From Chloroflexota bacterium (GTDB lineage: Bacteria > Chloroflexota > Limnocylindria > Limnocylindrales > CSP1-4): 64,000 bases of DNA. The translations under genes and the position numbers were made by a program. The stretch covers positions 55,873-119,872 of the forward strand of contig JAXLXC010000003.1 in NCBI GenBank assembly GCA_046328155.1, in the 5' to 3' direction. A model generated the notes under the pieces. The model was not told where the DNA came from and ran no database searches. It saw only the letters and a program-made list of their open reading frames with translations. Every line of letters starts with the position of its first letter. The first letter of the stretch is position 1. Positions 1 through 16,535 of the stretch are shown in pieces.

Positions 1-795
1 CTCGCAGCCAGCCGGCTCGCACCCGGTCGACCACGGAGGCAACATGCCCGTGCGGGATGTGCAGCAGGATGTCGCCGTCCCGGTTGAGGCCGCCGGTGGC
101 GTCCGATTCGACCTCGCAGGCGACCCACGACTCGCCGTCCCAGGCCTCCCACGCCAATGGCGGGTCGTCCGGGTCGACGCCCACGCCCTCGATTCGGCAC
201 GCGAAGCGGAGCAGCACCACGTTCGAGGGCGCTGGCTCGGTGAGCCCGACCAGCAGCATGTCGCCCACCTTGGGCACCGTGTCGAAGCAGAAGAAGCCCG
301 TGCCCAGGGCCAGCTGGTCGCTGTGGTCGCGCACCTGGTTGCGGGCGATGCTCGACGCCAGTCGCTCCAGGGCGACCGTGACGATGGGCAGCTCCGCGGT
401 GGTGCCGAACACGAGCGACGGGTCGCTCTGGGTGCGCACCGTGCCCACCTGGGTGCCCACCGGGATGCGCACCGTCTCGGGCTGGGGCGCCGAGAGCCAG
501 AAGGTGAGCGGCACGCGCGCGGCGGTGGGCGGGAAGAGCCGCACCCCGATGAGCTCCAGGAACCGGATGTAGTCGCGCTCGGGGACGCGGTTGATCCGAT
601 ACAGCAGCTGGTCCGTGATGTAGGCGAACGCCTCCACCAGCGTCACGCCCGGATCGGAGACGTTGTGGTCGGTCCACTCGGGGATCCGGCGCTGGATGAG
701 GCGCTTGGCGTCATCCACCAGGTCCTGGAACCGGCGGTCGTCGAGGGTGGGTGCCGGGAGGCTCATCGTGCGGGCTCCTCGGGGATGACATAGAA
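1..795 (-). CDS. Baseplate J-like protein (Afp11/gp6-like), partial; the 3' end runs off the window
   Basis: Minus-strand reading from the ATG at 795 gives MSLPAPTLDDRRFQDLVDDAKRLIQRRIPEWTDHNVSDPGVTLVEAFAY..., a characteristic baseplate-J N-terminus. It overlaps the gp25 stop (ATGA). There is no stop codon in the window, which is why the ORF track omits it. Confidence 0.8.
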
Positions 796-1167
796 CGGGA
801 ACACGAGGTTGCGCGGGTCGTTGGTGCGGACGGGCCGGTACTGGATGTCGATGAGCAGGACGCCGTGGTCGGCGGCCTCGAAGCCGATGTCCACGTCGAG
901 GACCTCGATTCGGGGCTCCCAGCGCAGGAGCGCCACCCGCACCTCGTGGGCGATACGGCCCGCCGTGGTGGCGTCGGGCGAGGCGAACACCAGGTCGTGG
1001 ATTCCGCAGCCGAACTCGGGGCGCATGGGGCGCTCGCCCGGTGCCGTGCCCACGATGAGCCGGATCGCCTCGTCCAGCTCCTGGGTCCCGTCGACGAGGG
1101 CGATGCCACCCGTGGGGCTGGTGCGGATGGGGAAGGGCCAGCCAGCACCGATCAGCTCGGACGCCAT
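763..1167 (-). CDS. gp25-like baseplate wedge protein (GPW_gp25 / Afp9-like)
   Basis: 134 aa with the conserved ...ELDEAIRLIVGTAPGERPMRPEFGCGIHDLVF... gp25 lysozyme-like fold signature. It sits between the PAAR and baseplate-J genes. Confidence 0.85.
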   Translation of the reverse strand: MASELIGAGWPFPIRTSPTGGIALVDGTQELDEAIRLIVGTAPGERPMRPEFGCGIHDLVFASPDATTAGRIAHEVRVALLRWEPRIEVLDVDIGFEAADHGVLLIDIQYRPVRTNDPRNLVFPFYVIPEEPAR

Positions 1168-1170
1168 CGG

Positions 1171-1554
1171 CTAGCCCACCAGCACCGTGGCACCGCTGGG
1201 CACGAGCGTGCCGGGCGTGAGGCAGCAGGTGGCGGCGGCCGTGGCGCTCGCGGCCGGCTGGCCGCCGAACGTCACGGTGGGGCTGCCGCTCGTGACGCGC
1301 CCCACCTGCATCGGTGGCGCGAGATACGGGTCGGAGGCGTGCAGGCCGACATGCGGCGGCGTGTTGAGACCCGACGCGCCCAGCACCGCGGCGGCCTTGC
1401 CCTCGATGAGCACCGTCGCGCACAGCCCCTGCAGCAGGGGCGCCGAGAAGGGCATCGGCGGGCCTGGGGTGGGGTTGCCGGCGGGCGTGGGGACCTGATG
1501 GATGGCGCACACGCCCTGGACCCGATCCCCCATGACGATGGCTGGCGCACCCAT
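1171..1554 (-). CDS. PAAR-domain spike-tip protein (Afp10-like)
   Basis: 127 aa. The N-terminus MGAPAIVMGDRVQGVCAIH and the PGPPMPF...VLIEGKAAAVLG pattern are typical of PAAR proteins. It lies directly downstream of the VgrG-like gene. Confidence 0.8.
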   Translation of the reverse strand: MGAPAIVMGDRVQGVCAIHQVPTPAGNPTPGPPMPFSAPLLQGLCATVLIEGKAAAVLGASGLNTPPHVGLHASDPYLAPPMQVGRVTSGSPTVTFGGQPAASATAAATCCLTPGTLVPSGATVLVG

Positions 1555-1564
1555 CCCGCGGCCC

Positions 1565-3292
1565 TCAGTTCAGCTGGATGAGGGCGCCGTCCACGTCGAC
1601 CGTGCCGGAGCTCTCGATGGTGATACCGGCGCTCCCCTTGAGCGTCAGCTGGCGCTGTGCCTCGATGCTGATCGAGGCCTGCCCCCTGATCTCCACGTCC
1701 TGGGTCGCCTCGATGACGACCTTGCCGTCCGCGTAGACGTGGATCTGCGAACCCGTCTGCTTGAGTGCGATCCGCAGCTTGTCGTCGCCCGTGATGATCG
1801 AGACGCCCTCCTGGCCATCGCCGTCGAAGAACACCAGCCGTTGGTTCCGGCGCGACACGATCCCCTGACGCCGGTTGTGGCCGTTGTCGAACAAGTCGTC
1901 GCCGAGCGGCGGCTTGTCGATGCCGTTCCAGACGCCGCCCAGGACGTACGGGCGGCGCACGTCGCCGAGCTCGAAGCCAACGAGCACCTCGTCGTTGACG
2001 TCGGGCAGGAAGACCAGGCCGGCCGCCCTGGCCGCGCCCGGCGACACCACGCGCACCCAGTCCGTCTCGTAGGTCTCCGACAGGCTGGGGAACCTGAGCT
2101 TGACCCGACCCATCCGCTCCGGGTCCTCCACATCCGTCACGAGACCCACCATGAGCCCGCTGCCGATCCCCCCGGCGGCCTGCGTGGCGGTCGGGCCGCC
2201 GCCACCCACGAGCCCCAGCAGCGAGCGGTCCTGCCGGCCGCTGACCGAGAACTCGGTGCGATAGCCGTCACGGTCGAACACGTGTCGGGTCGTGGTCGCC
2301 AGATACCGGCCCTGGAAGTCGTCGCCAACGACCGACACCGAGAACGGCGTGCCCGCTCGCAGCGTCGGGTTGCCACGCACCACGCCGTTGGCCTCCGCGA
2401 ACGACGAGCCCATGCGCTCCGCGAGCGCCAGCGCCGCCGCGTCCACGGCCGACTGGGTGGCGACGGGGTCGCGGTTCGAGACGAGCCGCGCGTCCGCGAA
2501 CGTGCCGGCCAGCTGCACCGGGTCGGTCGACAGCTGCGCGCTCCCGGTCGCCGCGGGCGCCGTCGCCATCATCACCTGCTTGCGGATCGGGTCCCACGCC
2601 CGGACCTCGACCTCCTTGACCTGCTCGGCGCTGGTGATGCGGGGGCGGAACTCGAGCAGCTCCTGGCCCATCACCAGCTGCAGCGGGTCCTGCGACTCGA
2701 AGTCGCCCTCGCCGGGTGCGCCGCTGGCAGGGGAGGGCTTGCGGAACTCGAAGCGGCCGTCGGCGAACGCCACCTCGTAGCCGATCTCCCGGGCGCGCCC
2801 CTGGAGGAACTCCCAGTCCGAGATGTTGGCCTGGGACACGTGCTCGTGGGTCGTGGCCGACTCGTCGATGGCGCCCACCTCCACGCCCGCCCGCTTCGCC
2901 ACCGCGCGTGCGATGTCCGAGTCGGTGGCATTGCGCCAGGTCTCGGTGTGACGCCCCCGATGGAACCGATGCGACGGGTCGTAGCCCCGCACGATGGCCC
3001 GCCCGCCGAGCGCGTCGTACTCCCCCTCGATGGCCGTCACCTCGCCCGTGATGAGCGGCGTGGTGGCCTGCTCGCCCAGCGCGGAGCCGGTGATGACCAC
3101 CCGCGAGCCGATGCGCACGCCCGCCTGGGTCAGGACCGTCCGGTCGATGTCCCGGAAGGTCAACAGGAACATGTCCGGCAGGTGGAGGTGGTCGTCCACC
3201 AGCACCGACTCGAGCGCCGGCTCGAGCTCCGGCGACAGCGCAGCCCCATCGATGGTCACGAGCGCCTGGAGGGAGTGGTCGCCGTCGGGCAT
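1565..3292 (-). CDS. VgrG/Afp8-like central spike protein (phage late-control D + gp5 OB-fold family)
   Basis: 575 aa. The N-terminus ...SLQALVTIDGAALSPELEPALESVLVDDHLHLPDMFLLTF is typical of the family. The C-terminal beta-helix-like region is G/V-rich. Confidence 0.85.
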   Translation of the reverse strand: MPDGDHSLQALVTIDGAALSPELEPALESVLVDDHLHLPDMFLLTFRDIDRTVLTQAGVRIGSRVVITGSALGEQATTPLITGEVTAIEGEYDALGGRAIVRGYDPSHRFHRGRHTETWRNATDSDIARAVAKRAGVEVGAIDESATTHEHVSQANISDWEFLQGRAREIGYEVAFADGRFEFRKPSPASGAPGEGDFESQDPLQLVMGQELLEFRPRITSAEQVKEVEVRAWDPIRKQVMMATAPAATGSAQLSTDPVQLAGTFADARLVSNRDPVATQSAVDAAALALAERMGSSFAEANGVVRGNPTLRAGTPFSVSVVGDDFQGRYLATTTRHVFDRDGYRTEFSVSGRQDRSLLGLVGGGGPTATQAAGGIGSGLMVGLVTDVEDPERMGRVKLRFPSLSETYETDWVRVVSPGAARAAGLVFLPDVNDEVLVGFELGDVRRPYVLGGVWNGIDKPPLGDDLFDNGHNRRQGIVSRRNQRLVFFDGDGQEGVSIITGDDKLRIALKQTGSQIHVYADGKVVIEATQDVEIRGQASISIEAQRQLTLKGSAGITIESSGTVDVDGALIQLN

Positions 3293-3294
3293 CG

Positions 3295-3984
3295 TCAGGC
3301 CAGCCGCGTGGCTTCGGTGAGGGTGGGGATGAGCACATGGCTGCCCACCTGCAGACGCATCGGGTCATCGATGGCGTTGAACGTGGCCAGGGCGCGCCAC
3401 AGGGTGGGGTCGCCGTACTCGGCGAAGGCGATGCTCGCCAGGGAGTCGCCCTCCGCCAGGATGTGACGTCGCCGGCCCTCCCGGCTTCCCGAGGTCGGGT
3501 TCTGGCCCTTGGGGTCGGTGGGCACCTCCTCGAGCGTGACGTTGGCGGAGGCCCGGAGGGGGTCGCCCGAGGGGTCGAACAGGGTGTACTTGGCGGTCAC
3601 GGACTTGAGATAGCCCCGGAAGTCGGCGAGCGCCTTGTTGCGGCCCCAGTCGAGGGTCAGGATTGGCGGCTCGGGCTTCTTCTGCTGCACCGACGCGGCC
3701 GTGGGCTTGGTCCAGTCGAGGAGCGTGGCCACGTCGTCGCCCACCGAGCTCCCCTCCTCGAAGCCGTCGAAGAAGATCTCCATCTGGACGGACTGCGGGT
3801 TGGTGCCACCGAACTGGGGCTTGGTCGCCGACTTGGCACCGGTGGTCTGGGGCCGGTTCCACGTGGCGCCCTTGGTGACGGTGTACTCCGCAGGGTTGTA
3901 CAGGAACCGCAGCTCCGTGCGGCTGGGCGAGCCAGCCACCACCCGGAGCGTCGCCTTGGCCAGCCCGGCCGCACCGCCCGCCAT
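3295..3984 (-). CDS. LysM-domain protein (Afp7-like tube initiator/baseplate hub)
   Basis: The C-terminal LysM reads HILAEGDSLASIAFAEYGDPTLWRALATFNAIDDPMRLQVGSHVLIP. I place the start at an internal ATG (3984) lying 4 nt after the upstream tube-gene stop. The 5' extension to 4332 in the ORF track is Arg/Ser-rich and overlaps the tube gene, so I treat it as spurious. Confidence 0.75.
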   Translation of the reverse strand: MAGGAAGLAKATLRVVAGSPSRTELRFLYNPAEYTVTKGATWNRPQTTGAKSATKPQFGGTNPQSVQMEIFFDGFEEGSSVGDDVATLLDWTKPTAASVQQKKPEPPILTLDWGRNKALADFRGYLKSVTAKYTLFDPSGDPLRASANVTLEEVPTDPKGQNPTSGSREGRRRHILAEGDSLASIAFAEYGDPTLWRALATFNAIDDPMRLQVGSHVLIPTLTEATRLA

Positions 3985-3988
3985 CCCG

Positions 3989-4417
3989 TCAGCCCGCCGT
4001 GAAGCCGTTGTGGGCGAGCTCGAGGGTCTCGTTGGCCACCTCGCGCCCGTTGACGTCGAGCGTGGGCCCGGACCAGCGGACCGGGAACACGTCCACCACG
4101 TTCCACCGGGTGACCGTGACGCCCTCGGTGTCCAGCACCCGGATCTCCGCCGTGTGCCCTGCGGCTGGCCCCTTCGCGCTGGAGATCCACGCCGCCACCT
4201 GCGCCGAGAGGGGGTTGAGCGTTCGGGTGAGCTTGATGGTGGAGTACTTGGTGCGCCCGGGGAGCCGATGGACGAACTCGTTGAGGCCGCCCTCCTTGTA
4301 CTCGAAGATCTCCCACTCGACCGCCAGCCCATCGCACTTGGTCCAGAAGCCGAGGTTCTGGGAGTCGATGGTCACGAGGAAGCGCAGTGCCAGCCCGGGC
4401 TCGGGGAAGGAGGACAT
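3989..4417 (-). CDS. Tail tube protein (Phage_T4_gp19 family; Afp5-like)
   Basis: 142 aa: MSSFPEPGLALRFLVTIDSQNLGFWTKCDGLAVEWEIFEYKEGG..., the classic tube-protein motif. Its start overlaps the upstream gene's stop (ATGA). Confidence 0.8.
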   Translation of the reverse strand: MSSFPEPGLALRFLVTIDSQNLGFWTKCDGLAVEWEIFEYKEGGLNEFVHRLPGRTKYSTIKLTRTLNPLSAQVAAWISSAKGPAAGHTAEIRVLDTEGVTVTRWNVVDVFPVRWSGPTLDVNGREVANETLELAHNGFTAG

Positions 4418-6255
4418 CAGCGCACGTCCGCGAGGGTGCCGGCACGCTCGCGAGCCACCAGGAGCTCGCTGGACAGGCTGCGACGAAGCCGCGGGTAGAG
4501 GCGACGGACCATCTCGTCAAGGTCGCGGTCCGCGATGGTCGTGGCGCCACCGGCCGGGCTCGCGGGCTGCGCCGTCGTGGCGGTCGGGCCCGCGGAGGCG
4601 GTCGGCGGCGCGCTGGTGTCCTCGCTCGGGGTGGGGTCATCCGGCGCCGCCGGCAGGGCATCCGTCGATGCGCGCTGCGCGACCACGCTGCTGGCGCGCT
4701 GCGCCACCGCGAGGGCGGGTGCGTCGGTCGCGACGGACGGACGGGCACCCGGCCGGCGCGGGTCGTTGGCTGAGGCAACGACCGACGTCGCCGAGCGAGC
4801 CACCCGGAGGTCGCCCGCCGCGCCCATCGATGCGTCCCTGCCATCGGCCGACCCGCGCGCCGCGACCGCTGTCGTGAGGCGCGTCACGCCACCCGCCGGC
4901 GAGTCGAGCCACCCGGCGGCGCCGTCGGCCACGGCCCGGGCGACCGGGATGGTGCCGAGGCGCTGCGCCGCGCCCGGTCGCGAGGTGCCCCGCTCCGCCG
5001 CGCCGCCTGCCGTGGCGCGCTGCATCGTGGGACGTCTCGCCGGCCCGGGGGCTGCCTGCCCGGCGTCCGTCGATGGGCTGGCCGGGGCGCGCCCCGGAAG
5101 CGTGGGTCGCAGCGGGGCACTGGGCCCGATCGCCTCGACGCCCACGAGCGGTGCCATGACACCCAGGCTCGATGGGGGTGGCTGGTCGGGGGCCACCCCG
5201 TCGTCGTCCGGGCGCGAGGCGGCGACGACCCTGGCCAGCACGAGTCCGCCGGGGATGCCCGGCGCCGGTGCCGGCGGTCGGCTCCCGACCAGCGGCTCCT
5301 CCTCGATGGTCGCTGCCAGCCCGCCGGTGAGGGGTGTCTCGGGTGTCGCCGGGTGGGCCTGTGGTGCGTGGGCTGCGGGATGCCGCTGCAGCGTGCCCGC
5401 GGGCGGCGCGGTCGGCGCCGGCCGCGCTGGCAGGGCCAGGTCCACGGACGGACTGCCGGGGCTCAGGGTCGACCGCTCGACCGGGGGGCCCAGACGGACC
5501 CGGGAGCCACCGGGCGTGCGGAGGATGGTGCGCGTCGGCGCGCCAGCCGGCGTACCCGGCACCGCCGGAGCGCCCTGCGCCTCCCGAGCACGCGTCTCCC
5601 CTGCCGTGCCCGGGATGCGACGTGCGCTGGGATCCGCCGCCGCGGCCGTGCCCCGAGACGGCGCGAGCGACAGGCCCGCGGCGAGCGCCGGGTCCGGGGT
5701 GCGCGCGACGGTCAGGGGGCCGGGCCGCGGCGTGGGCGCGGCGACCACCGACGCCTGCCGCGGCTCGAGCGGCGGCAGGAGGTCGTGGGCCGGCGCCGGC
5801 GCGGCCGAGTCGCCATCGCTGATGGGCACGGCCGCCGACGGCGCGAGGCCCGACGGGACGGGCCCGCCGTCGGACATCCCGCCGCCCTCGGTCATGCGCT
5901 GGGCGGGGGCCGTCGGGCGGCGAGAGCGGAGCGGCAGGTCGACGCGCGAGCCAGGGGCCGCGGTCGTCGGAGCGAGCGTCGGCCTGGCGAGGCCCGAGAC
6001 CAACCCCGCCGGCCCATCGACCGTCCGCGCATGCCCCAGTGGGGCGAGGATGGGCGTTGGCAGCTGGCGGCCCGCGACCTCGTCGGGGAACCGCTGGATC
6101 CGGATGCCCGGGTCGCCTGCGAACGTGGGCAGCAGCGTCCCTGCCACGCGCCAGTCGTGCCTGACGGGCGCCTCGACGCGCTGCACGACCCCGACCGCCG
6201 CGGGCGCGGCGGCACCGTCCGACGGCTGTCGGCGGAAGGGCCAGGGCAGACGCAT
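4417..6255 (-). CDS. Pro/Ala-rich low-complexity protein in the tape-measure position; putative tail-length determinant (Afp14-like?)
   Basis: 612-aa ORF in the same orientation as the operon. It is extremely Pro/Ala/Thr-rich but ends in a non-repetitive motif, DLDEMVRRLYPRLRRSLSSELLVARERAGTLADVR. The alternative frames over this span are Arg-rich and look like antisense/GC artefacts. The exact start is uncertain. Confidence 0.4.
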   Translation of the reverse strand: MRLPWPFRRQPSDGAAAPAAVGVVQRVEAPVRHDWRVAGTLLPTFAGDPGIRIQRFPDEVAGRQLPTPILAPLGHARTVDGPAGLVSGLARPTLAPTTAAPGSRVDLPLRSRRPTAPAQRMTEGGGMSDGGPVPSGLAPSAAVPISDGDSAAPAPAHDLLPPLEPRQASVVAAPTPRPGPLTVARTPDPALAAGLSLAPSRGTAAAADPSARRIPGTAGETRAREAQGAPAVPGTPAGAPTRTILRTPGGSRVRLGPPVERSTLSPGSPSVDLALPARPAPTAPPAGTLQRHPAAHAPQAHPATPETPLTGGLAATIEEEPLVGSRPPAPAPGIPGGLVLARVVAASRPDDDGVAPDQPPPSSLGVMAPLVGVEAIGPSAPLRPTLPGRAPASPSTDAGQAAPGPARRPTMQRATAGGAAERGTSRPGAAQRLGTIPVARAVADGAAGWLDSPAGGVTRLTTAVAARGSADGRDASMGAAGDLRVARSATSVVASANDPRRPGARPSVATDAPALAVAQRASSVVAQRASTDALPAAPDDPTPSEDTSAPPTASAGPTATTAQPASPAGGATTIADRDLDEMVRRLYPRLRRSLSSELLVARERAGTLADVR

Positions 6256-6261
6256 CGTGCG

Positions 6262-6420
6262 CTACTCCTCCTCGGTCAGGCGGCGGTTGATGGTGGAGAT
6301 CTCGGCGGCGAAGCGGTGCCGGTCGGCGTGCTCCAGGTCCATGATCTCGTCCATCGACCAATGGAAGTGGTAGGCCACGTACGCCACCTCCTCGAAGAGG
6401 CGGTCGGCGGCGTACGTCAC
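6262..6420 (-). CDS. Small hypothetical protein in the eCIS operon (about 52 aa)
   Basis: A GTG start overlaps the upstream stop (GTGA). The product reads VTYAADRLFEEVAYVAYHFHWSMDEIMDLEHADRHRFAAEISTINRRLTEEE. There is no recognisable domain and support is positional only. Confidence 0.3.
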   Translation of the reverse strand: MTYAADRLFEEVAYVAYHFHWSMDEIMDLEHADRHRFAAEISTINRRLTEEE

Positions 6421-6848
6421 GATCCCCCCAGGCCGTCGGCCCCCAGGTCGATCGTGAAGTCGTGCTGGCATGCCGGGCAGCTGACCGCGACCTGGCTGGT
6501 GCCCTCCTGGTTGACCCTCCGGTAGAGGTCCTGCAGGAACGCGAGGTCGCTCGCGAACATGCCCTCCACGATGCCGGGATGGACCTCCGGGAGCGACCCC
6601 AGCCGCGTGACGACACGCGACAGGAGCAGCACCGTGAGGTACGCCTCGTTCTCGCGGACGCGCGGGTCCCGCTGGGGGATGATCTCGTCACGGGCAGTGG
6701 CGAGCCGCATCGTCCCCTCGCGGTGGACGCCGCCGTTGGCGTCCACGTAGCCGCGGGGCAGGACGAACGCGAACTCGGTCCGGAGGCCGGTCCCGGCACC
6801 CCGCGCGGGGGCGCCCACGGCCTGGGTGGGCGACGGCGCCAGGCTCAT
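6417..6848 (-). CDS. Hypothetical eCIS-associated protein (143 aa)
   Basis: It lies between the tube and putative tape-measure genes in operon orientation, the position that tail-assembly chaperones occupy in phages. It has a C-terminal SCPACQHD half zinc-finger and non-repetitive composition. Confidence 0.45.
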   Translation of the reverse strand: MSLAPSPTQAVGAPARGAGTGLRTEFAFVLPRGYVDANGGVHREGTMRLATARDEIIPQRDPRVRENEAYLTVLLLSRVVTRLGSLPEVHPGIVEGMFASDLAFLQDLYRRVNQEGTSQVAVSCPACQHDFTIDLGADGLGGS

Positions 6849-6857
6849 CGCGTCGCC

Positions 6858-7313
6858 CTAGACCCGCTCGAACGCCTCGCACACGAGCGAGGCCTCCTCC
6901 ATCAGCACCTCGTTGGCGCCGGCCTTGAGGGTGCCCGTGGAGATCTTGGAGATCCACGCGTTGGTGAAGTTGTAGCGCGCGACCTCCGAGCCGTCGTAGC
7001 TCTTGAGGATCACCGAGCCGTTCTTGCGCGACTCGCTGAGCTTGCCCTCGAGCACCGCCTGGTGCCAGTCCCAGAGGGCCTTGGACGAGCTCTTGGCGCG
7101 CTTGAGGGTGATGGTCGGGGGCTTGACCGCCCCCGGCGCCTTGTGGATGACGAGCTTGCCGTCCGGCGTGTTCTCCTTGAGCTCGACCACGTCGACCTCG
7201 GATGCCAGACCGCTCACCTCGGCGAACTGGGCGATCTCGATGGAATCGATCTCGATGGCGAACAGGTAGGACGCCAGCGCGTCCGTGGGCAGGTTGGGGA
7301 GTCCGCTGGCCAT
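6858..7313 (-). CDS. Inner tail tube protein (Afp1-like, Phage_T4_gp19 family)
   Basis: 151 aa: ...ASYLFAIEIDSIEIAQFAEVSGLASEVDVVELKENTPDGK..., a tube-protein signature. It lies immediately downstream of the sheath gene. Confidence 0.85.
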   Translation of the reverse strand: MASGLPNLPTDALASYLFAIEIDSIEIAQFAEVSGLASEVDVVELKENTPDGKLVIHKAPGAVKPPTITLKRAKSSSKALWDWHQAVLEGKLSESRKNGSVILKSYDGSEVARYNFTNAWISKISTGTLKAGANEVLMEEASLVCEAFERV

Positions 7314-7332
7314 GGGTCGTTGCCTCTCCTCA

Positions 7333-8856
7333 CTATTCGCTCAGGGACGCCCCACCCGAGAACTGCGCGATGCGGAACACCACGAACTCGGCGGGCTTGA
7401 CGGGCGCGATGCCGACCTCGACCACGAGCTGGCCGGCGTCGACCACCTCCGGTGGGTTGGTCTCCGCGTCGCATTTCACATAGAACGCCTCGCCGGGCGT
7501 GGCACCGAACAGCGCGCCATCGCGCCAGGTGCGCACCAGGAAGGCGTTGAGGGTGCGCTTGACGCGCTGCCACAGGTTGAGGTCGTTGGGCTCGAAGACC
7601 ACCCACTGGGTGCCCTCGAGGATCGACTCCTCGACGTAGTTGAACAGGCGCCGCACGTTGAGGTAGCGCCACGCCGGGTCGCTCGAGAGCGTCCGCGCGC
7701 CCCAGATCCGGATGCCGCGTCCCGGGAACGAGCGGATGCAGTTGATGCCGTCGGGGTTGAGCTGGTCGTGCTCGCCCTTGGTGATGACGAGCTCCAGGCC
7801 GAGCGCGCCGCGGATGACCTCGTTGGCGGGGGCCTTGTGGACCCCGCGCGTGTCGTCGTTGCGCGCCCAGACGCCTGCCACGTGGCCGGACGGGGGGATG
7901 TACTGCCCCTTGCCCGACAGGGGATCGAGCACCTTCACCCATGGCCAATACATCGCAGCGTACTTGGAGTCGTAGCCGACCTTGTCGACCCGCCACTCCT
8001 TGACCTGCTGCGCGTTGAGGCCAGGCGGGGCATCGATGATGGCGACGCGGTCGCCCATCAGCTCGCAGTGGCCGATCATGGCCGACTGCACGGCCTGGAC
8101 GCCCTCGAGGTCGATGATCCCCTTCTGGTAGAGGCTCATGAGGTCGGGGACGGCCAGCATGGTCACCTCGTCGACGGCCTCCAGGCCACCGAAGCCGGTC
8201 CGGTCTGCGGGGTCGCCCACGTAGTCGTCGGGGGTCAGCCGCATGGGCTTGGCGTTCTCCGCCCCGGCCAGCGAGACGCGGCCACGCGCCGGTGCGCGCT
8301 CGACGGCGCTGCCGCCCAGCTCCTCGATCGCGATGAGCTTGGACTGCTCCTTGACGATGGTGACGACGTGCTCCTTGCCACGCTTGGTGGAGACGTTGTC
8401 GTAGACCTCCTCCGGCCGACCGGGTGCGCGGACGGTGAGCTTGAACGTCTCCTCCGCGGGCGTGGTCGCCTCCGACACCTCGACCGAGATCTGGTTGCCG
8501 GCCGGCCCTGCCTCCAGGGCGCTGATCCGGTAGCCGCTGAGCTTGCCGTCCTTCTGGGTGGGGATCTCGGCGCGCGCGGTCGCGGCGGGCGCGTCGCCGC
8601 CGATCCGCACCACGTAGCAGGCGCCCCCGCCGTTGAGGAAGAAGCCGTACACCGCATGCGCCAGATACGTGCCCTCGGTGAAGTCGCCGAACGCGGTCAC
8701 GTACTGGCTCCAGTTGGTGATGAGCGTGGGGGCGTTCGTCGGCCCGCGCGCGGCGAGCCCCACGAACGCAGCCACGGCCGTGCCGACGCCCTCGATGGGG
8801 CGCGACCCAGCCTCGACCTCCTCCACGTAGACGCCGGGCGACAGATATGTCGGCAT
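7333..8856 (-). CDS. Contractile sheath protein (Afp2/3/4-like)
   Basis: 507 aa. The start MPTYLSPGVYVEEVEAGSRPIEGVGTAVAAF is the canonical sheath N-terminus, preceded by GGAGG 7 nt upstream of the ATG at 8856. The ORF-track extension to 10245 is Arg/Gly garbage that reads through the divergent promoter. Confidence 0.9.
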   Translation of the reverse strand: MPTYLSPGVYVEEVEAGSRPIEGVGTAVAAFVGLAARGPTNAPTLITNWSQYVTAFGDFTEGTYLAHAVYGFFLNGGGACYVVRIGGDAPAATARAEIPTQKDGKLSGYRISALEAGPAGNQISVEVSEATTPAEETFKLTVRAPGRPEEVYDNVSTKRGKEHVVTIVKEQSKLIAIEELGGSAVERAPARGRVSLAGAENAKPMRLTPDDYVGDPADRTGFGGLEAVDEVTMLAVPDLMSLYQKGIIDLEGVQAVQSAMIGHCELMGDRVAIIDAPPGLNAQQVKEWRVDKVGYDSKYAAMYWPWVKVLDPLSGKGQYIPPSGHVAGVWARNDDTRGVHKAPANEVIRGALGLELVITKGEHDQLNPDGINCIRSFPGRGIRIWGARTLSSDPAWRYLNVRRLFNYVEESILEGTQWVVFEPNDLNLWQRVKRTLNAFLVRTWRDGALFGATPGEAFYVKCDAETNPPEVVDAGQLVVEVGIAPVKPAEFVVFRIAQFSGGASLSE

Positions 8857-9069
8857 GAGTGCCTCCGGTGATCGGAACGGACGCGCCGGAGGCTCGCAGC
8901 GGCAGCCACGACCCGGAAGTGCCCGCCGGTCCGCGGTCGGGGCAGCCGAGGATGCCCCGAGGGGCGATCGCCCGGCTGTCGATGCCTCATCGGGCGATCG
9001 CGAGTGCCCGGTCGGCCGCACCCGGGCGGGGCCCGCCGCCGGTCCCGGGAGGCGATGCTCCCCCGCGCG
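8857..9069. promoter_or_regulatory. Divergent intergenic control region between the sheath operon (-) and the cap/ATPase genes (+). It contains two copies of GGGCGATCGC (8962-8971 and 8992-9001); the first is part of a perfect 12-bp palindrome GGGCGATCGCCC.
   Basis: The two genes are transcribed outward from this 213-bp gap. The repeats were read directly from the sequence. Confidence 0.4.
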
Positions 9070-9903
9070 ATGATCCATGACGTCGACGAGTCGCTGCGCA
9101 CCCTGGTCAAGCGGGACGCCCTTGAGGGTTCGCGCGTGGACCTCGCGTTCGATGCCCCCACCCGCGAGTGGGCGGCGCGCCAGAACAGCCCCATCGTCTC
9201 GCTCTACCTCTACGACATCCGCGAGGACGTGTCGCGCCGCGAGGTGGCCTGGGAGACCCAGCGCGGGCCGGACCGGATGCCCACCCAGCACGCCCAGCCG
9301 CCTCGCCGCTACCGCCTGAGTTACCTCATCACGGCGTGGACCCAGCGCCCGGAGGACGAGCATCGGCTGCTGTCGTCGATGCTCGCCTGCTTCCTGCGCC
9401 ATCCCGTCCTGCCCACCGACGTGCTGGTGGGCGACCTGACCGGGACCTCGCTGCCGGTGCTCACCACCATCGCGCTGCCGCCGCCCCAGGACCGCTCCAT
9501 CGCGGACGTGTGGTCGGCGCTCGGCGGCGAGCTCAAGCCCTCGCTCGACCTGGTGGTGACGGCACCCCTGGATGCGTCCGTGCGCATCCCCGCTGCCGCC
9601 CCGGTGCTCGAGTCGCCACGGATCCGGGTGGTCCGGCCCGATGGCACGGGCGACGAGGTGGCGGTCGCAGGTCCGGGTGGTGGCGGGGCCGCACGCCGGC
9701 CCCTCGCACCCGACGACGAGGCCGACCAGGAGGAGACGGTGGAGCCGGGTGCCGTGGGCGTCGCGCGGCTGGGCCAGCCCGGGCCCCAACCGGCGCCTAC
9801 GGGTGGTCGCAAGCGCGCGGCGGCGGGCGCCCCGCAGGAGCCGCCGTCCACGGCCAGGCTCCCGGGCCGTCGGCTGATCATCCGGGGCGTGCGTCGCCCG
9901 TGA
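9070..9903 (+). CDS. DUF4255 (Pvc16_N) protein; eCIS tail terminator/cap, Afp16-like
   Basis: Starts MIHDVDESLRTLVKRDALEGSRVDLAFDAPTREWAARQNSPIVSLYLYDIRED, the hallmark DUF4255 N-terminus. Its stop overlaps the ATPase GTG start (GTGA). Confidence 0.8.
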   Translation: MIHDVDESLRTLVKRDALEGSRVDLAFDAPTREWAARQNSPIVSLYLYDIREDVSRREVAWETQRGPDRMPTQHAQPPRRYRLSYLITAWTQRPEDEHRLLSSMLACFLRHPVLPTDVLVGDLTGTSLPVLTTIALPPPQDRSIADVWSALGGELKPSLDLVVTAPLDASVRIPAAAPVLESPRIRVVRPDGTGDEVAVAGPGGGGAARRPLAPDDEADQEETVEPGAVGVARLGQPGPQPAPTGGRKRAAAGAPQEPPSTARLPGRRLIIRGVRRP

Positions 9904-12004
9904 CCGTCGCCGCCGGTCGCCCGGCCGACGAGGCGGCCGAGGTCGCGGGGCACGCCGACGCCTCGCTGGCCTACCTCGGGGCGCGTCTGGCCCTCCTCGA
10001 GGCGCGCGTGCGGTCGGCCGTCGAGCGGCGCCGCGCCACCGACCCCGACCCCGACGACCGGTTCCGGGGCCTCTACATCCCCGAGACCATGGTCGACCAG
10101 CTGCTGGCGGGCGCCCGCCCGCTCCTGCCCGACGGGCCGGACCACGCGTCGCTCGAGGCGCTCGACGGGTCCGCCGAGGTCGCGGAGGCCCAGGGCGCGA
10201 CCATCGGGCTGCGGCGGCTGGCCCGCGGCTTCGACCTCGCGCCACTGGACCTGGAACTCCTGCTGGTGGCGCTCGCGCCGGACCTCGAGCCGCGGTTCGA
10301 GCGGCTGTACGCGTATCTCCAGGACGACGTGTCGCGGCGGCGGGCGGGCATCGGCCTCGCGCTCGAGCTGGCGACCGGGATTCCGGGCCTCAGCCCGGCC
10401 CGGGCACGGCTGGGCCCGTCGTCGCCCCTGGTCGCGAGCGGCCTGCTGCTGGCGGACGAGCCCGAGCGCCCGTTCCTCACCCGGTCGCTGCGGGTGCCCG
10501 ATCGCGTCACGGCGCACCTCCTGGGCGACGACACGCCCGACCCACGCGTGGCGCTGCTGGCGATGGAGCCTGTGCCCCTGGCCCAGCCCGAGGGGGCGCT
10601 CGTGGCCCGTGCGATCGCCGCGGGCGTCCCGCTGGTGCATGTCCGGGAGCGACCGGGGACCGCCGGGGTCGCGATGGTGGCGGCAGCCCTGGGTGCCGTC
10701 CACCGAGGCGTGCTGACCCTCGACCTCGCCCGGCTGGGGCCGCTCGACGACGCGGGCGAGGTCGCGGCCGCCGCCGCCCGCGAGTGCCGGCTGCTGGGCG
10801 CCACGCTCATGGCCGGCCCGGTCGATGCGCTCGCCGAGCGCGGCGCAGCCGCCGTCCGCGCGTTCGCCGAGGCGCCCTGCCAGGTCGTGCTGGTGGGCGC
10901 CCGCACCTGGGATCCCGCATGGTCGCGACATGTGCCGGTGCTGGTGGACGCGCCGGCCCCTCGATCGAGGACCGCGCCGCGGCGTGGCAGGGGGCGCTGG
11001 ACGGGTGTGACGGGTCCGCCGACCCGGGCACGGTCACCGTCCAGTTCCTGTTGGGACCCGAGCAGATCGCGCGCGCCGCTCGCTCGGCGCGCCAGCAGGC
11101 GGACGCCGAGGACCGCCCGCTGCTGCCCGAGGACCTGCGCGCGGGTGCCCGCGCCCAGAACGCCGCGGGGCTCGAGCGTCTGGCCCGACGGGTGCGCCCG
11201 GCCGTGGGCTGGGACGACCTCGTGCTGCCCTCCGAGGTCGTGACGCAGCTCCAGGAGCTTGCGTCCCGCGCCCGGTACCGGGACGTCGTGCTCGACCGGT
11301 GGGGCATGGGTCGCGGATCATCCACCAAGGGACGTGGCATGACTGCCCTGTTCGCGGGGGACTCGGGCACCGGCAAGACCATGTCCGCCGAGGTGATGGC
11401 CGGGGACCTCGGGCTCGACCTCTACGTCATCGACCTCTCGACGGTCATCGACAAGTACGTGGGCGAGACCGAGAAGCACCTCGACCGGATCTTCACCGAG
11501 GCCGACCGGGTCAACGGGGTGCTCCTGTTCGACGAGGCGGACGCCGTGTTCGGCAAGCGCTCCGATGTCAAGGACTCCCACGATCGCTATGCGAACGTCG
11601 AGGTCGCGTACCTGCTCCAGCGCATGGAGCTGTTCGACGGCGTGGCCATCCTGACCACGAACCTGCGCGCCAACCTCGACGAGGCGTTCACCCGACGTCT
11701 CGACGGGGTGGTGGACTTCCCGGTCCCAGACGAGGACGACCGACTGCGTCTCTGGGAGCGCCACCTGCCGGTGGGCGTGCCGCGGGCCGACGACGTGGAC
11801 CTGGGGTTCCTCGCGCGCAGCTTCCGGCTCTCCGGGGGCAACGTTCGCAACGTCTGCCTCGCCGCCGCGTTCCTGGCCGCCGCGGACGGTCGGCCGATGC
11901 GCATGGCGGACCTCATCCACGGCACCGCCCGCGAGTATCAGAAGCTGGGCCGCCTGTTCGTGGAGGCCGAGTTCGGGCCTTGGCATCACCTCGTGCGGGG
12001 CTGA
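9900..12004 (+). CDS. eCIS AAA+ ATPase (Afp15-like), interrupted by a -1 frameshift at the C4 run 10957-10960 as sequenced
   Basis: The N-terminal 350 aa are in frame 0 (VTVAAGRPADEAAEV...VLVDAPAP). The Walker-A/AAA module is in the +2 frame (...PSIEDRAAAWQGAL...LFAGDSGTGKTMSAEVMAGDLGLDLYVIDLS...LLFDEADAVFGKR...). One extra C would join them into ...APAPSIEDRAAAW... Confidence 0.75.
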
Positions 12005-12185: not shown

Positions 12186-13745
12186 ATGGCATGCTCCGGA
12201 CCGGTGCCACCGACCACCGCCTCCCTGCCGCTCCGGGTCGCGACCCTGCTCGTCCTGGCCGCGCTGCTCGTGCCCGCGTCGCTGGCGCCTGCGCTGCTCG
12301 CGCCATCTCCCGTGCATGGCCAGGACCCCGCGACGCCGCCGACCATCGAGGTCTCCGGGTCGCCCCTGCTGCGCGACGAACCCGGCCGAGGGGTCCTGAT
12401 TCGCGTGACGCTCCGCGAGCCGGCCCACCTCCGACTGCTGGTCACCGACTTCGACGGCCAGGTGGTGCGCGAGCTGTACGACGGCGACCGAGGCGTCGGC
12501 GACCTGGGGCGTCGCTGGCGGGGTCGGGACGCGGACGGCCGTCTGGTCGCGGTGGGGGCCTATCGGGTGAGGGCCATCGCGTCCACCGCGGCCGTCCCGA
12601 CGGGCGTCGCGTCGGACGCGTGGGTCACGGTCGCCGACCACGCCGCGTACCCGGCGGACCCGGGCGCCATCACGGGGGTCGTCGACCCGGGTCACGGCGG
12701 CCCGTTCGATGGCGCGGTCGCACGCGATGGCACGCGCGAGGCCGACCTCAACCTGGACATCGGGCTGCGGCTCGCGCGGATGCTCGAGGGCGCCGGCGTG
12801 CACGTCGTGCTCACGCGGGATTCCGACCGACAGGTCGACCAGCCACCGATCGACCGGATCCCCGATGGCATCCTGGATGTGACCGACGACCTGGCCGCGC
12901 GCGCGGACCTCGCCAACGCCGTCCGGGCCGACCTGTTCATCGCCATCCACAACAACACCGCGGTCGACCGCACCACGGGCGGGCCATCCACCTACTACTC
13001 CGACGAGCGCACCTTCAGCGCCCGGTCGCGACATCTGGCGCGGATCATCCAGGCTCACATGGTGGCTGCCCTCGACGCGGTCGGGAGCGGCGCGTGGGCG
13101 CCCTACGACCACGGCGTCCTGGCGTATCCCTACTACGTCCTGCGCGACTACGACCCGCCCCGTCTGCTCCGTCCCAGCCAGATGCCCGCGGTCCTCTCGG
13201 AGGGGCTGTTCCTGTCCAACCCCCGCGAGCTGCGGATGCTCCAGCGCCCCCGCGTGCGGCAGGCCATGGCCGTCGCGTACTACGAGTCCGTGGTGGAGTA
13301 CCTCGCCACGCGCGGCAGCCACGTGGGATACGCGCTCCTGCGTGCCCCCACGACGGTCGAGGCGGGGTCGCCCGTCGAGCTGGAGCTGGAGGTCCGCGAC
13401 CAGGGCACCACCACGCTGCGGGGCTGGCACCTGGCCGTGGGCGCCCAGGTGGACGGGTCGACCGCGCTGGGACGCGCCCGTCCGGGTGGCACGCTGGGAG
13501 AGCGCCGCATCCCGACGCGCCGGCCGGGCCAGCGACGCACCCTCCGGGTCACCGCGACGGCGCCGGTGGAGCCGGGCCGCTGGGTGCTCCTGGTCGACGC
13601 GCGTGGCCCCACGGGTGGCCGCGCCTCGGAGGCCGGCAGCCCCATGCTCCAGGTGCCCATCGAGGTCACCGCGCCGGCGTCCGCGGATTCGTCCGTGGTC
13701 CCAGCTTCGCCCACCCCCGGGTCATCGGTGGCGCCAACGCCATAG
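12186..13745 (+). CDS. Secreted N-acetylmuramoyl-L-alanine amidase (Amidase_3) with an N-terminal Ig-like domain
   Basis: Signal-peptide-like N-terminus (MACSG...RVATLLVLAALLVPASLAPALLAPSPVHG). Amidase_3 motifs DPGHGGPFDGAV, DLNLDIGLRLARMLEGAGVHVVLTRDSD and ADLFIAIHNNT. An alternative start at 12111 is possible. Confidence 0.8.
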   Translation: MACSGPVPPTTASLPLRVATLLVLAALLVPASLAPALLAPSPVHGQDPATPPTIEVSGSPLLRDEPGRGVLIRVTLREPAHLRLLVTDFDGQVVRELYDGDRGVGDLGRRWRGRDADGRLVAVGAYRVRAIASTAAVPTGVASDAWVTVADHAAYPADPGAITGVVDPGHGGPFDGAVARDGTREADLNLDIGLRLARMLEGAGVHVVLTRDSDRQVDQPPIDRIPDGILDVTDDLAARADLANAVRADLFIAIHNNTAVDRTTGGPSTYYSDERTFSARSRHLARIIQAHMVAALDAVGSGAWAPYDHGVLAYPYYVLRDYDPPRLLRPSQMPAVLSEGLFLSNPRELRMLQRPRVRQAMAVAYYESVVEYLATRGSHVGYALLRAPTTVEAGSPVELELEVRDQGTTTLRGWHLAVGAQVDGSTALGRARPGGTLGERRIPTRRPGQRRTLRVTATAPVEPGRWVLLVDARGPTGGRASEAGSPMLQVPIEVTAPASADSSVVPASPTPGSSVAPTP

Positions 13746-13757
13746 CTCGGCCGGCGG

Positions 13758-14516
13758 TCAGCGGTTCGTGGCGTCGCGCCACGCCTCCTGTGCGGCCGGC
13801 CACCACCGGGCGATGACCACGTCGTCGCCATACCACGGGCTCCCGACCACGCCGTGGAGCGCGTCGTGGAGCGTGAGGTGCCGGGCGCCGGGCAGGTGGG
13901 CGAGCGAGAGCGAGACGATGCCATCGCCACCCGACGCGAGCGTGGGACCCGTGATGCGTCGGAAGAACGCGTGCTGCGCCCGGGCGATCGGGCCTCGGCG
14001 ACGCGAGGGCGGCCCGGTCGCCGGTCGGACCGCCTCGGACCCGACCGTGAGATAGGCGGTCCCGGGCGCGTCGTGGGCACCTGGCGCGTGACGTGCGAGG
14101 TGGGCGGCCAGCCGCACCCCCTCGTGGGTGCCCCGCAGCGGGGCGAGGTGGAGGTCGTGCGGCGACCCAAGCGTCACGAGACAGCCGACCCGGTCGGCCA
14201 TGCCGCCCACATGGCCCCGATACGGCGCCTCGGACATGGCGAGTCGGGCCAGCAGCCCACCACCCGAGTGGCCCACGACCATGATCGGACGGCCCGCGGC
14301 CCGCCGATGCGTCCCCTCGATGGCCAGGGCGACCTTCCGCTGGAGCGCCCCGAAGCCGCGGACCCCGGCGAGACCCCAATCGAGGGCATGGACCGGCGCG
14401 ATGTCCACGCCCGCCGCCCCGCGATGGAGCAGCCGCCGGCGCATCCGTCGATAGGCCACCGGGGGCGCCAGCAGGCCACCCACGATGAGCACCCACGGTC
14501 GGTCGCGGTCGGTCGC
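13758..14516 (-). CDS. Alpha/beta-fold hydrolase (lipase/esterase-like, GHSGG nucleophile elbow)
   Basis: ...PWVLIVGGLLAPPVAYRRM...RPIMVVGHSGGGLLARLAM... The start could also be at 14546. Confidence 0.65.
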   Translation of the reverse strand, partial: ATDRDRPWVLIVGGLLAPPVAYRRMRRRLLHRGAAGVDIAPVHALDWGLAGVRGFGALQRKVALAIEGTHRRAAGRPIMVVGHSGGGLLARLAMSEAPYRGHVGGMADRVGCLVTLGSPHDLHLAPLRGTHEGVRLAAHLARHAPGAHDAPGTAYLTVGSEAVRPATGPPSRRRGPIARAQHAFFRRITGPTLASGGDGIVSLSLAHLPGARHLTLHDALHGVVGSPWYGDDVVIARWWPAAQEAWRDATNR

Positions 14517-14588
14517 CATCTGGTCCACGGACGCAGGATGCCCCAACCAGCCGGAGGGGCCCTCGCCGGGCGCGTGCGCCCGGCGACG

Positions 14589-15734: not shown

Positions 15735-16535
15735 GTGACGAGCGTGGGCAACGAACTGGACCTCGAGCTCGCCGGTGGCGTGCGGACGGCGCTGCCGGGA
15801 CATGCCACCGAGGCGTCCACGGCGGGTCATGGCCCGATGCTCGCCGCGCGCGCAGTCGCCGAGGGCCGCCCGTCCGCCCTGGACGCCGCCTCCATCGCCC
15901 ACCTCCAGGCCGTGGCTGGGAATGGCGGTGTCGCGCGGCTACTCGAGGACGATGCGCCCGACCAGGTGCGCTCGGCGCTCTCGCGCTCCGGCGAGACGCT
16001 CGACCCAGCGGTCGCCGCCGACATGTCGGCGCGGCTGGGCGCGGACCTCTCGGACGTGCGGATCCACCGAGACGCCACGGCGTCCGAATCGGCACGGGCG
16101 GTCAACGCCAACGCCTACACGGTCGGCTCCGACATCGTGTTCCAGTCCGGCCAGTACGACCCGGCGAGCCCGGCCGGCCAGCGGACCCTCGCCCACGAGC
16201 TGACCCACGTGGTCCAGCAGCGCGCCGGTGCCGTCGACGGCACCGAGGTCGGCGACGGGCTGGCGCTCAGCCATCCGTCCGACCGCTTCGAGCGCGAGGC
16301 CTCGAGCACGGCCGACCGGCTGATGGCGGGAGCCAGCCCAGCGGCGACGCCCGCGCCCGTGACCGCGGCCCGCCACGCCGATGCCCACGAGGACGGCACG
16401 GCGCAGCGGGGCATCGCCATCGAGAACGTCGCCGACGACGAGGAACAGCCCGAGGAGGAGGAGCAGACGGGCGCCGGGCTCATCGGCCAGCGCGACACCG
16501 ACGAGCCCGAGGAGGAGGAGCAGACCGCCGGGTGA
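15735..16535 (+). CDS. DUF4157-domain protein (HExxH; eCIS-associated toxin N-terminal-domain family) with a poly-acidic C-terminal tail
   Basis: Starts at a GTG (15735) preceded by GGGAG. Canonical DUF4157 core: DLSDVRIHRDATASESARAVNANAYTVGSDIVFQSGQYDPASPAGQRTLAHELTHVVQQ. The C-terminus carries ...EEQPEEEEQT...DEPEEEEQTAG. The 5' part of the 893-aa track ORF is antisense to the neighbouring genes and spurious. Confidence 0.75.
   Translation: MTSVGNELDLELAGGVRTALPGHATEASTAGHGPMLAARAVAEGRPSALDAASIAHLQAVAGNGGVARLLEDDAPDQVRSALSRSGETLDPAVAADMSARLGADLSDVRIHRDATASESARAVNANAYTVGSDIVFQSGQYDPASPAGQRTLAHELTHVVQQRAGAVDGTEVGDGLALSHPSDRFEREASSTADRLMAGASPAATPAPVTAARHADAHEDGTAQRGIAIENVADDEEQPEEEEQTGAGLIGQRDTDEPEEEEQTAG

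Follow-up and report, generated by a model that had tools for sequence, protein, structure and literature searches.

A class IId contractile injection system locus in a Limnocylindria-like Chloroflexota chromosome, with a possible frameshifted chaperone and a candidate cargo motif

Contractile injection systems (CIS) of class IId, as defined by Chen et al. 2019 and in the sense used since (PMC10066040; PMC12237407), include the CIS-Sc/SLP systems of Streptomyces (PMC10066040; PMC10020575; PMC12237407; PMC13277306). Particles of this class reside in the cytoplasm of Streptomyces (PMC10066040) and of Roseiflexus and Deinococcota (PMC12998442); cryo-electron tomography has revealed them inside Roseiflexus-like and Deinococcota cells, and they have been proposed to have spread horizontally among Streptomyces, Chloroflexota and Deinococcota (PMC12998442). 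A typical tape measure is stated to be absent from CIS-Sc (PMC10066040; PMC12237407), and the usual position of the fibre gene is taken by Sco4242/CisA, a protein with a Cys-rich Zn-binding region ahead of a transmembrane (TM) helix and a C-terminal domain that is conserved (PMC10020575; PMC12237407). The DUF4157 domain is a core marker of CIS, and regulators of the GerE and BTAD types flank extracellular CIS (eCIS) loci (PMC8213781). In S. lividans the small DUF4157 protein Sle2 binds Sle1, its cargo, as well as the tube initiator (PMC13277306), and the effectors Sco4256-58, which have homologues in Chloroflexi, combine a chaperone-like N-terminal domain, a single TM helix and a variable C-terminal domain (PMC10066040; PMC10020575). 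Here we describe a CIS locus at the start of a 64,000-nucleotide stretch (hereafter the window) of contig JAXLXC010000003.1, from a Chloroflexota bacterium, and set it beside 104 related loci.

Gene content, class and layout

The G+C content of the window is 68–78%, which makes raw lists of open reading frames (ORFs) useless; genes were called from the G+C content of third codon positions (GC3 frame plot) together with a check of the translations, and the GC3 coding signal is strong throughout the CIS genes. All genes from base 2 to 8856 lie on the minus strand as one operon. A sequence-only reading of the first 12,004 bases had recognised in it the core modules of an eCIS, and each of these gene calls is now backed by Pfam, NCBIfam, PHROGs and solved structures (Table 1). 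The sheath is a single protein that aligns over its full length to the CIS-Sc sheath 8bky_A (query residues 1–503 to chain residues 1–529; 4.8e-207) and nearly as well to 8bl4 (7e-204), whereas the Afp and Pvc sheaths align only to its C-terminal ~200 amino acids (aa; 1e-43 to 1e-53). For the J-like protein, gp25, the LysM hub, VgrG and both tubes the best CIS structure is a CIS-Sc chain of 9GTP or 9GTR, and in a concatenate search of solved structures these chains are the top match overall for all of them but tube1. The two tubes differ in the better fitting of the two NCBIfam CIS models, which is CIS1_fam for the inner tube and CIS5_fam for the second. The full-length sheath and the component matches to CIS-Sc structures therefore place the system in class IId. 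Its content agrees with that class in these parts: a single full-length Cis2 sheath, two gp19 tubes, the Cis7/8/9/11 set, the cap Cis16, the ATPase Cis15 (its frame interrupted once) and a small DUF4157 protein. Judged on these matches the locus is a class IId CIS of the CIS-Sc/SLP, Streptomyces type, a kind already described, and the kinship with the cytoplasmic Streptomyces systems that the sequence-only reading had proposed is borne out by the structural components.

Related loci were collected by a VgrG scan with one genome per species (24 loci, synteny by tblastn) and by a metagenome scan with the C-terminal half of the ATPase (80 further loci); they come from metagenome-assembled genomes (MAGs) of Limnocylindria and Dormibacterota type and from metagenome contigs of unrecorded source, and are numbered L001 onwards. 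Gene order is identical across the 24 genome loci, from Chloroflexota to Streptomyces. The nearest loci belong to Chloroflexota/Limnocylindrales MAGs, followed by Dormibacterota, Acidimicrobiia, Actinophytocola and Streptomyces. Identity to L001 (Chloroflexota) is 91% for the sheath and 88% for VgrG, and each of the 11 structural genes and the cap aligns to its L001 orthologue as one full-length segment (tblastn); identity to L023 (Streptomyces) is 59% for the sheath and 57% for J. The host, by its protein matches, is a Limnocylindria-like member of the Chloroflexota and not an actinobacterium. Ppk1 of the window is 83–90% identical to its best matches, with precomputed Pfam domains present, and the named matches among its best 120 are all Chloroflexi/Chloroflexota (one Limnocylindrales, one Anaerolineae); the best named matches of the 143-aa protein of the operon are likewise Chloroflexi/Limnocylindrales.

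Upstream of the sheath, on the plus strand, stand a DUF4255 cap and an AAA+ ATPase, and both families and the divergent orientation had been called correctly (the cap aligns to 9gts_0A from query residue 6, 7.4e-58); the ATPase, however, is split by a 1-nucleotide frameshift. That this divergent layout is an actinobacterial trait did not hold up. ATPase and sheath share a strand in 31 loci, including all three named actinobacteria (L013, L022 of Actinophytocola and L023 of Streptomyces), and lie on opposite strands in 12, which are Chloroflexota/Dormibacterota MAGs and two metagenome contigs. On this distribution the divergent cap/ATPase layout is an inversion typical of the non-actinobacterial branch, and the block of cap, ATPase, adaptor and regulator is an invertible module. 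The intergenic region between sheath and cap contains no sigma-70-like or terminator-like site in our scan and no Rfam family.

Nor is the locus complete within the window, as had been supposed. The J gene has its ATG at 766, where start and gp25 stop overlap as ATGA, and only 254 of its ~649 codons precede the window edge at base 1; the fragment aligns to residues 1–253 of the 652-aa chain 9gtp_1K (3.2e-89) and has no Pfam match because the Baseplate_J domain sits further downstream. Its orthologues are 649 aa long in L001, L003, L009 and L019. Beyond J the relatives carry Tail_P2_I (Cis12; PF09684 at 5e-15 in L001 and 9e-17 in L023) and then a gene for a protein of ~400 aa with Zn-ribbons, a TM helix and a C-terminal domain of ~150–180 aa, all of which lie off the window here. 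The copy at L001:15088-16290 is 28% identical over 250 aa (1e-9) to the L023 gene at the same position, and this gene of the relatives fits the published description of Sco4242/CisA; in L001 it is followed by a BTAD/AAA regulator on the other strand. No fibre gene follows P2_I in L001, L003, L009, L019 or L023. Profile scans of the window yielded no Afp13-like fibre gene, the operon end lying beyond base 1; the advice to look for Afp12/13-like genes in the upstream 20 kb was misdirected, such genes being expected downstream of J, past base 1. At its other end the CIS reaches ~23 kb, i.e. past 12004. Two conserved genes that had gone unmentioned, those of the 143-aa protein and of DUF6760, belong to the operon.

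Table 1. Features of the CIS locus and of its surroundings in the window
Feature	Position	Strand	Matches and remarks
Baseplate J-like protein (Cis11), N-terminal 254 codons	2..766	-	TIGR02243 'baseplate assembly protein' 6.3e-52, above cutoff
gp25-like baseplate wedge (Cis9)	763..1167	-	PF04965 2.7e-24; 9gtp_V 2.9e-50
PAAR spike tip (Cis10)	1171..1554	-	PF05488 5.8e-7, 30.1 bits (cutoff 27); PHROG 281
VgrG-like spike (Cis8)	1565..3292	-	Phage_base_V 2e-24; 9gtr_q 2.7e-108
LysM/CIS_tube baseplate hub (Cis7)	3295..3984	-	PF19266 7.1e-29, LysM weak; 9gtp_P 2.6e-40
Second gp19-type tube, tube initiator/adaptor (Cis5/Cis1b)	3989..4417	-	PF06841 1.8e-30; 9gtp_a 7e-35
Pro/Ala-rich 612-aa protein, tape-measure position	4417..6255	-	no family match
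DUF6760 small protein, 52 aa	6262..6420	-	PF20546 2.2e-16
Conserved 143-aa protein	6417..6848	-	PHROG 508 'tail assembly chaperone' 4.5e-6
Inner tube (Cis1a)	6858..7313	-	PF06841 2.8e-31; 8bl4_v/9gtp 2.3e-19
Contractile sheath (Cis2), 507 aa, single protein	7333..8856	-	Phage_sheath_1 2.5e-24; sheath_1C 8e-21
Divergent intergenic region, sheath/cap	8857..9069	.	frame plot
Pvc16_N/DUF4255 tail terminator cap (Cis16)	9070..9903 (alternative ATG 9055)	+	PF14065 6.1e-44
AAA+ ATPase (Cis15/Afp15 type), winged-helix N-domain and one AAA domain	9900..12004	+	PF22977, PF00004
Secreted N-acetylmuramoyl-L-alanine amidase, FlgD Ig-like domain	12204..13745	+	Amidase_3 7.4e-38, FlgD_ig 4.5e-7
PGAP1-like alpha/beta hydrolase	13758..14546	-	PF07819 3.4e-6; syntenic in L026, L027, L003
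DUF922 (Zn-peptidase-like) protein, N-terminal LQADAGNAA	14589..15551	-	PF06037 2.8e-17; motif at 15353
Small eCIS_core (DUF4157) protein, N-terminal LQAVAGNGG	15735..16535	+	PF13699 5.1e-32; motif at 15903
LuxR/GerE-family regulator	16576..17238	-	GerE 6.2e-14
Membrane protein: Ig-like N-domain (~213 aa), TM helix 214-248, C-domain ~155 aa	17494..18705	+	Cep192_D3/CARDB weak
Secreted Ig-repeat (Big_6/TIG) protein	18708..20708	+	signal-like N-terminus; syntenic in L026, 47% identity
Two paralogous Zn-ribbon/TM/AMIN-like proteins	20736..21986, 22053..23048	-	DZR, DUF7577, AMIN-like matches; 32% identity
Ordinary genes: F420-type oxidoreductase, aquaporin, nitrilase, aminotransferase, ABC transporters, CHAD, S9 peptidase, DeoC	23-62 kb		
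Ordinary genes, phosphate-related: PhoU/PitA, PhoR/PhoB-like proteins, PstSCAB, Ppx	23-62 kb		

Site of action and rival readings

It is likely that positions 1 to ~23,000 hold most of a class IId CIS in a Limnocylindria-like Chloroflexota chromosome, most likely a cytoplasmic one. By analogy with CIS-Sc and phage tails, a baseplate of J, gp25 and the off-window P2_I protein would assemble around the spike of hub, VgrG and PAAR; tube and sheath would polymerise from the tube initiator, aided by the chaperone-like and Pro/Ala-rich proteins, and the cap would close the particle off. The AAA ATPase would assist both assembly and the loading of cargo, the latter together with the eCIS_core adaptor. 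The loaded cargo would be the DUF922 protein with its LQxxAGN motif, the Sco4256-like membrane protein, or both. Such a particle would not be released against other cells but, like those of Streptomyces and Roseiflexus, stay in the cytoplasm, dock to the membrane of its own cell and fire under stress. That the relatives lack a fibre gene and have a CisA-like one, taken with the published imaging of class IId particles, makes cytoplasmic action the most likely mode.

Several points weigh against this account. Cytoplasmic action is extrapolated from other organisms, and no feature of the sequence proves where the particles are located. The operon ends beyond base 1, and both the absence of a fibre and the presence of P2_I and CisA are read only from the relatives. 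If the frameshift in the ATPase is real, the locus may be non-functional, and the neighbouring amidase could just as well act in a lysis-mediated release. As to the cargo, the status of the DUF922 protein as a candidate depends on its motif and neighbourhood, and the likeness of the Ig-TM membrane protein to Sco4256 on architecture and neighbourhood rather than on a comparison of sequences.

The amidase bears on a classical extracellular CIS of the Afp/PVC type, which would be released by lysis and inject DUF4157-linked toxins into other cells. That the locus encodes such a system is unlikely, even though eCIS_core and DUF922 peptidase-like proteins are linked to it and a secreted peptidoglycan amidase adjoins the ATPase here and in L001; the general eCIS model is that of PMC8213781. 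In the relatives examined no fibre follows the baseplate genes and a CisA-like membrane protein stands there instead; the components are closest to those of the cytoplasmic CIS-Sc, Chloroflexota particles of class IId have been imaged inside cells (PMC12998442), and the amidase, with its Sec-type signal, is absent from L026 and L027.

The second rival concerns the ATPase. Its N-terminal half (9900..10961; PF22977 6.2e-26) and C-terminal half (10949..12004; PF00004 2.5e-22) are in different frames, the break falling at ~10,945–10,950, between ..VDAPAP and SIEDRAAAW... Aligned at the DNA level to L001, L003 and L018, the window has a single-base gap at GCCGGC-CCCTCG, and the ATPase is one open frame of 697–744 codons in L001, L003, L018 and L019. 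The sequence is compatible with an assembly error as well as with a biological frameshift.

Broken genes occur elsewhere in the window, in a cluster at 33.7–38.3 kb (33,700..38,350). In the glutamyl-tRNA synthetase the frame changes at least three times and HIGH and KMSKS lie in separate frames, asparaginase II is present as two ORFs, the uracil phosphoribosyltransferase is truncated after ~95 aa and a DNA methylase is reduced to a 67-aa stub; the window sequence therefore contains indel errors or decay. Among the relatives, the long-read MAG of L002 (CAWJKF010000018.1) shows frame breaks in the sheath (4713), the N-domain of the ATPase (2690) and the hub (9773–9797). Frameshifts are common in such long-read assemblies and are not to be taken for pseudogenes.

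A decaying, non-functional remnant, with a genuine frameshift in the ATPase and a loss of proper particle assembly or loading, would account for the one-base gap relative to three relatives and for the fragmented synthetase, asparaginase, phosphoribosyltransferase and methylase genes. We nevertheless think it improbable, as the cap gene and all 11 structural genes are unbroken and carry a strong GC3 coding signal, a broken glutamyl-tRNA synthetase points to sequence error and not to biology, and the other fragmented genes are clustered as locally poor assembly would leave them.

A prophage tail module or an R-type tailocin is very improbable. Tube, sheath, baseplate and chaperone-like genes are indeed phage-derived, but the scanned called genes of 12–62 kb (all but a few of the ORFs there) have no match to capsid, portal, terminase, integrase or holin families, nor to the fibre with holin/endolysin that would mark a tailocin, in keeping with the claim of the sequence-only reading that the locus is a CIS and not a prophage; the flanks of the relatives are likewise free of such families (and of those of a type VI secretion system, T6SS), and there is no tRNA. 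The Pvc16 cap, the Afp15-type ATPase and eCIS_core are moreover markers of CIS, and the locus is kept in a fixed chromosomal context across phyla. A T6SS can be dismissed almost outright: it has VgrG, PAAR, gp25 and a contractile sheath in common with the locus, but the sheath here is one 507-aa protein and not a TssB/TssC pair, the ATPase is a winged-helix domain with a single AAA domain and no ClpV-type match, the best structural matches are to CIS-Sc, and the Pfam and NCBIfam matches of the scanned genes contain no T6SS-specific family such as those of the TssJLM membrane complex.

Linked block, cargo motif and a possible tail-length module

To the right of the ATPase a block of linked genes follows, which from the hydrolase onward is syntenic as a whole in L026. 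The amidase at its start has a hydrophobic, Sec-type signal-like N-terminal segment and adjoins the ATPase in L001 too (64% identity), but not in L026 or L027; it was considered as a core part of the CIS and rejected on account of that absence and of the signal. Homologues of the DUF922 protein adjoin eCIS_core genes in L026, L028, L056, L065 and L070. Of 44 related loci, 35 have an eCIS_core match downstream of the ATPase at a distance of 6 kb or less, and the small protein that carries it here is a probable Sle2-like cargo adaptor, to judge from its domain and place. Where at least 3 kb of sequence lie upstream of the cap gene (49 related loci), a homologue of the LuxR regulator is present in 27, typically adjoining the cap gene, and one of the Ig-TM membrane protein in 20. 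The latter has the architecture of the Sco4256-58 effectors (compared with PMC10066040 and PMC10020575) and, by this analogy, is a second cargo candidate. The two paralogues at the far end, syntenic in L026, each consist of one or more N-terminal zinc ribbons, a single TM helix, a linker rich in Pro/Thr/Ala and a C-terminal domain of AMIN-like type; they were rejected as CisA orthologues, the Zn-ribbons alone resembling L001:15088-16290.

The DUF922 and eCIS_core proteins, which form a divergent gene pair, share an N-terminal motif. A search of the six-frame translation of the 64-kb window with the pattern LQ..[AIVLS]GN.[AG] gave exactly two occurrences, one in each of the pair, and none in 20 shuffles. 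In the related loci there are 58 occurrences: 29 at the N-terminus of small eCIS_core proteins, two in DUF922 homologues and 27 in other ORFs of 100–1440 aa, more than half of which start within ~400 nucleotides of an eCIS_core gene. The form LQRxAGNxAV recurs across the related loci L013-L088. This distribution makes the DUF922 protein the foremost candidate for cargo, with the eCIS_core protein as its adaptor. The LQRxAGN motif may be a recognition signal between cargo and adaptor, the DUF922 protein being a candidate cargo or effector; it may be the cargo signal that, for PVC/Afp, was reported undetectable.

A second group of observations concerns the genes between the tubes. The 143-aa gene, which has the tube gene on one side and the tape-measure-position ORF on the other, encodes a protein without a Pfam family or a PDB sequence match that falls into more than 8000 database clusters, all of them unnamed. 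Its AlphaFold2 model, built on a 41-sequence alignment, is poor, with a predicted local distance difference test score (pLDDT) of 57 and a predicted template modelling score (pTM) of 0.35. The protein is probably an analogue of tail assembly chaperones. The DUF6760 ORF lies in the -1 frame relative to it, with a GTGA start/stop overlap in the window; this frame relation holds for 41 of the 43 loci and fails only in two indel-ridden long-read MAGs, and DUF6760 is 52–96% identical (39% in L093) across the related loci that span the position.

Three codons ahead of the stop of the 143-aa gene (junction 6417-6430) there is an in-register heptamer, which reads G GGG GGA in the window, L001 and L037, G GGG GGG in L018 and G GGG GAA in most loci. 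Loci L056, L063, L070 and L093, a divergent branch, have C CCT TTA/C at the same position, TTA occurring elsewhere in them zero to one times per ~1300 codons. In other CIS genes, 0.18% of the codon positions bear an in-register heptamer of the form X XXY YYZ. Third-position conservation rises to 0.9–1.0 in the codons of the G-run, and five loci have no ATG, GTG or TTG near the junction from which DUF6760 could start. A 12-bp hairpin begins 5 nucleotides past the heptamer (minimum free energy -43.4 kcal/mol, z = -3.6) and is predicted in most loci, though not in the Dormibacterota group; its covariation is only modest, and both arms are coding. Natural in-frame fusions of the 143-aa protein and DUF6760 were sought among 1.8 billion representatives, nearly all matches being stand-alone ORFs of 48–100 aa. 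One entry, P0258, has the exact junction predicted for a -1 slip, for which a 1-nucleotide sequencing error is also possible; P0325 and P0304 have the look of frame errors.

These features raise the possibility of a programmed -1 ribosomal frameshift that joins the 143-aa protein to DUF6760. The junction could be explained more plainly by the GTGA start/stop overlap, with the G-run as the ribosome-binding site (Shine-Dalgarno) of DUF6760, which fits most loci but does not fit the CCCTTTA branch. The literature searched makes no mention of DUF6760 or of a frameshifted chaperone in CIS.

The Pro/Ala-rich ORF had already been assigned to the tape-measure position, where the relatives have an ORF too; its ends are conserved while its length varies. 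The 612-aa protein has no match in Pfam, NCBIfam or PHROG. Every motif-bearing related locus has a single ORF of 511–1225 aa at this place, whose content of proline plus alanine is mostly 30–44% (0.26 in L067). Its C-terminal ~40 residues are kept as a helix motif, ..LDELARRLYDRLRxRLRxELLxDRERAGxxxDLR; L098 is exceptional, with a proline plus alanine fraction of 0.14 and no C-terminal motif. Variable length with a kept C-terminus is what would be expected of a tape-measure-like, length-determining or lumen protein. Particles measure 268 nm in S. coelicolor, 238 nm in Calidithermus chliarophilus and 365 nm in Deinococcus aquatilis.

Joining both sets of observations, we tentatively suggest, with somewhat more doubt than confidence, that class IId CIS retain a complete phage-style module for tail length and assembly and that LQRxAGNxAV is their cargo-recognition signal. 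The module may comprise the 143-aa chaperone, with a long form made by a -1 frameshift into DUF6760, followed by the Pro/Ala-rich tape-measure analogue; the slip may take place at G GGG GGA/GAA or C CCT TTA, with a hairpin after 5 nucleotides in most lineages.

The lineage has been characterised already and is found very often in metagenomes, with more than 8000 clusters for just the chaperone-like gene, and the locus therefore changes little: it is one more Chloroflexota example of a characterised CIS lineage and ordinary for its family. Comparative value lies in the 104 loci, which show that nearly all of the lineage has an eCIS_core adaptor beside a variable neighbour. Only the frameshift/tape-measure idea and the cargo motif may be of specialist interest. 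If the former is true, length control and assembly of cytoplasmic CIS become testable; if LQRxAGN marks proteins for loading, it gives simple means to find or engineer cargo in class IId.

Beyond the linked block, the profile-scanned called genes of 23–62 kb are an ordinary chromosomal set. A phosphate-homeostasis neighbourhood at 39,264..57,310 holds a PhoB-like regulator, PhoU_div and PitA, a PhoR-like kinase, a SixA-like phosphatase, PhoU, PstBACS, CYTH-CHAD, Ppk1 and Ppx/GppA. Scans of the whole window for tRNAs and Rfam families returned none.

Comparison with known systems

The putative frameshift recalls the -1-frameshift chaperone pairs of phages (lambda G/GT, P2 E/E+E'), with a chaperone-like gene between tube and tape-measure genes, a -1-frame ORF of ~50 aa overlapping its end, a slippery heptamer and a hairpin. 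It differs from them in that the frameshift here is predicted from sequence, most loci have a GTG or ATG start over the stop, and G GGG GAA, the heptamer seen most often, departs from the canonical X XXY YYZ pattern.

With Afp, PVC and AlgoCIS the locus shares the tube, the sheath, equivalents of Afp5/7/8/9/10/11, the Afp15 ATPase, the Afp16 cap and the DUF4157 marker. Unlike them it has one sheath gene instead of three, no Afp13 fibre in the window or after P2_I in the relatives examined, and no Afp14 tape measure recognisable by family match, and its ATPase and cap stand at the sheath end of the gene order.

The CIS of Roseiflexus castenholzii, Thermogemmatispora, Calidithermus and Deinococcus (PMC12998442) are likewise of class IId, and the phylum Chloroflexota is shared. 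Those taxa are thermophilic or extremophilic and partly filamentous, while the relatives collected here are MAGs of Limnocylindria and Dormibacterota type and metagenome contigs of unrecorded source.

The closest counterparts are the CIS-Sc/SLP systems of S. coelicolor, S. venezuelae and S. lividans (8BKY, 8BL4, 9GTP/9GTR/9GTS). The host differs, being a member of the Chloroflexota and not of the Actinomycetota, and in this sequence the ATPase is frameshifted; the block of cap, ATPase, eCIS_core and LuxR is inverted relative to the sheath operon, whereas it is colinear in L013, L022 and L023; the Pro/Ala-rich ORF, at 612 aa, has roughly half the length of that in L023 (~1100 aa), and the candidate cargo is a DUF922 protein and not Sle1. 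PAAR is present here and in S. venezuelae but not in S. coelicolor. Gene set and order are otherwise the same: sheath, tube, 143-aa protein, DUF6760, a long low-complexity ORF, the second tube, LysM hub, VgrG, (PAAR), gp25 and J, with a linked cap, a winged-helix AAA ATPase, a small DUF4157 protein, a LuxR regulator and an Ig-TM-C-domain protein like Sco4256-58 in architecture, and, in the relatives of this locus, P2_I and a CisA-like gene in place of a fibre.

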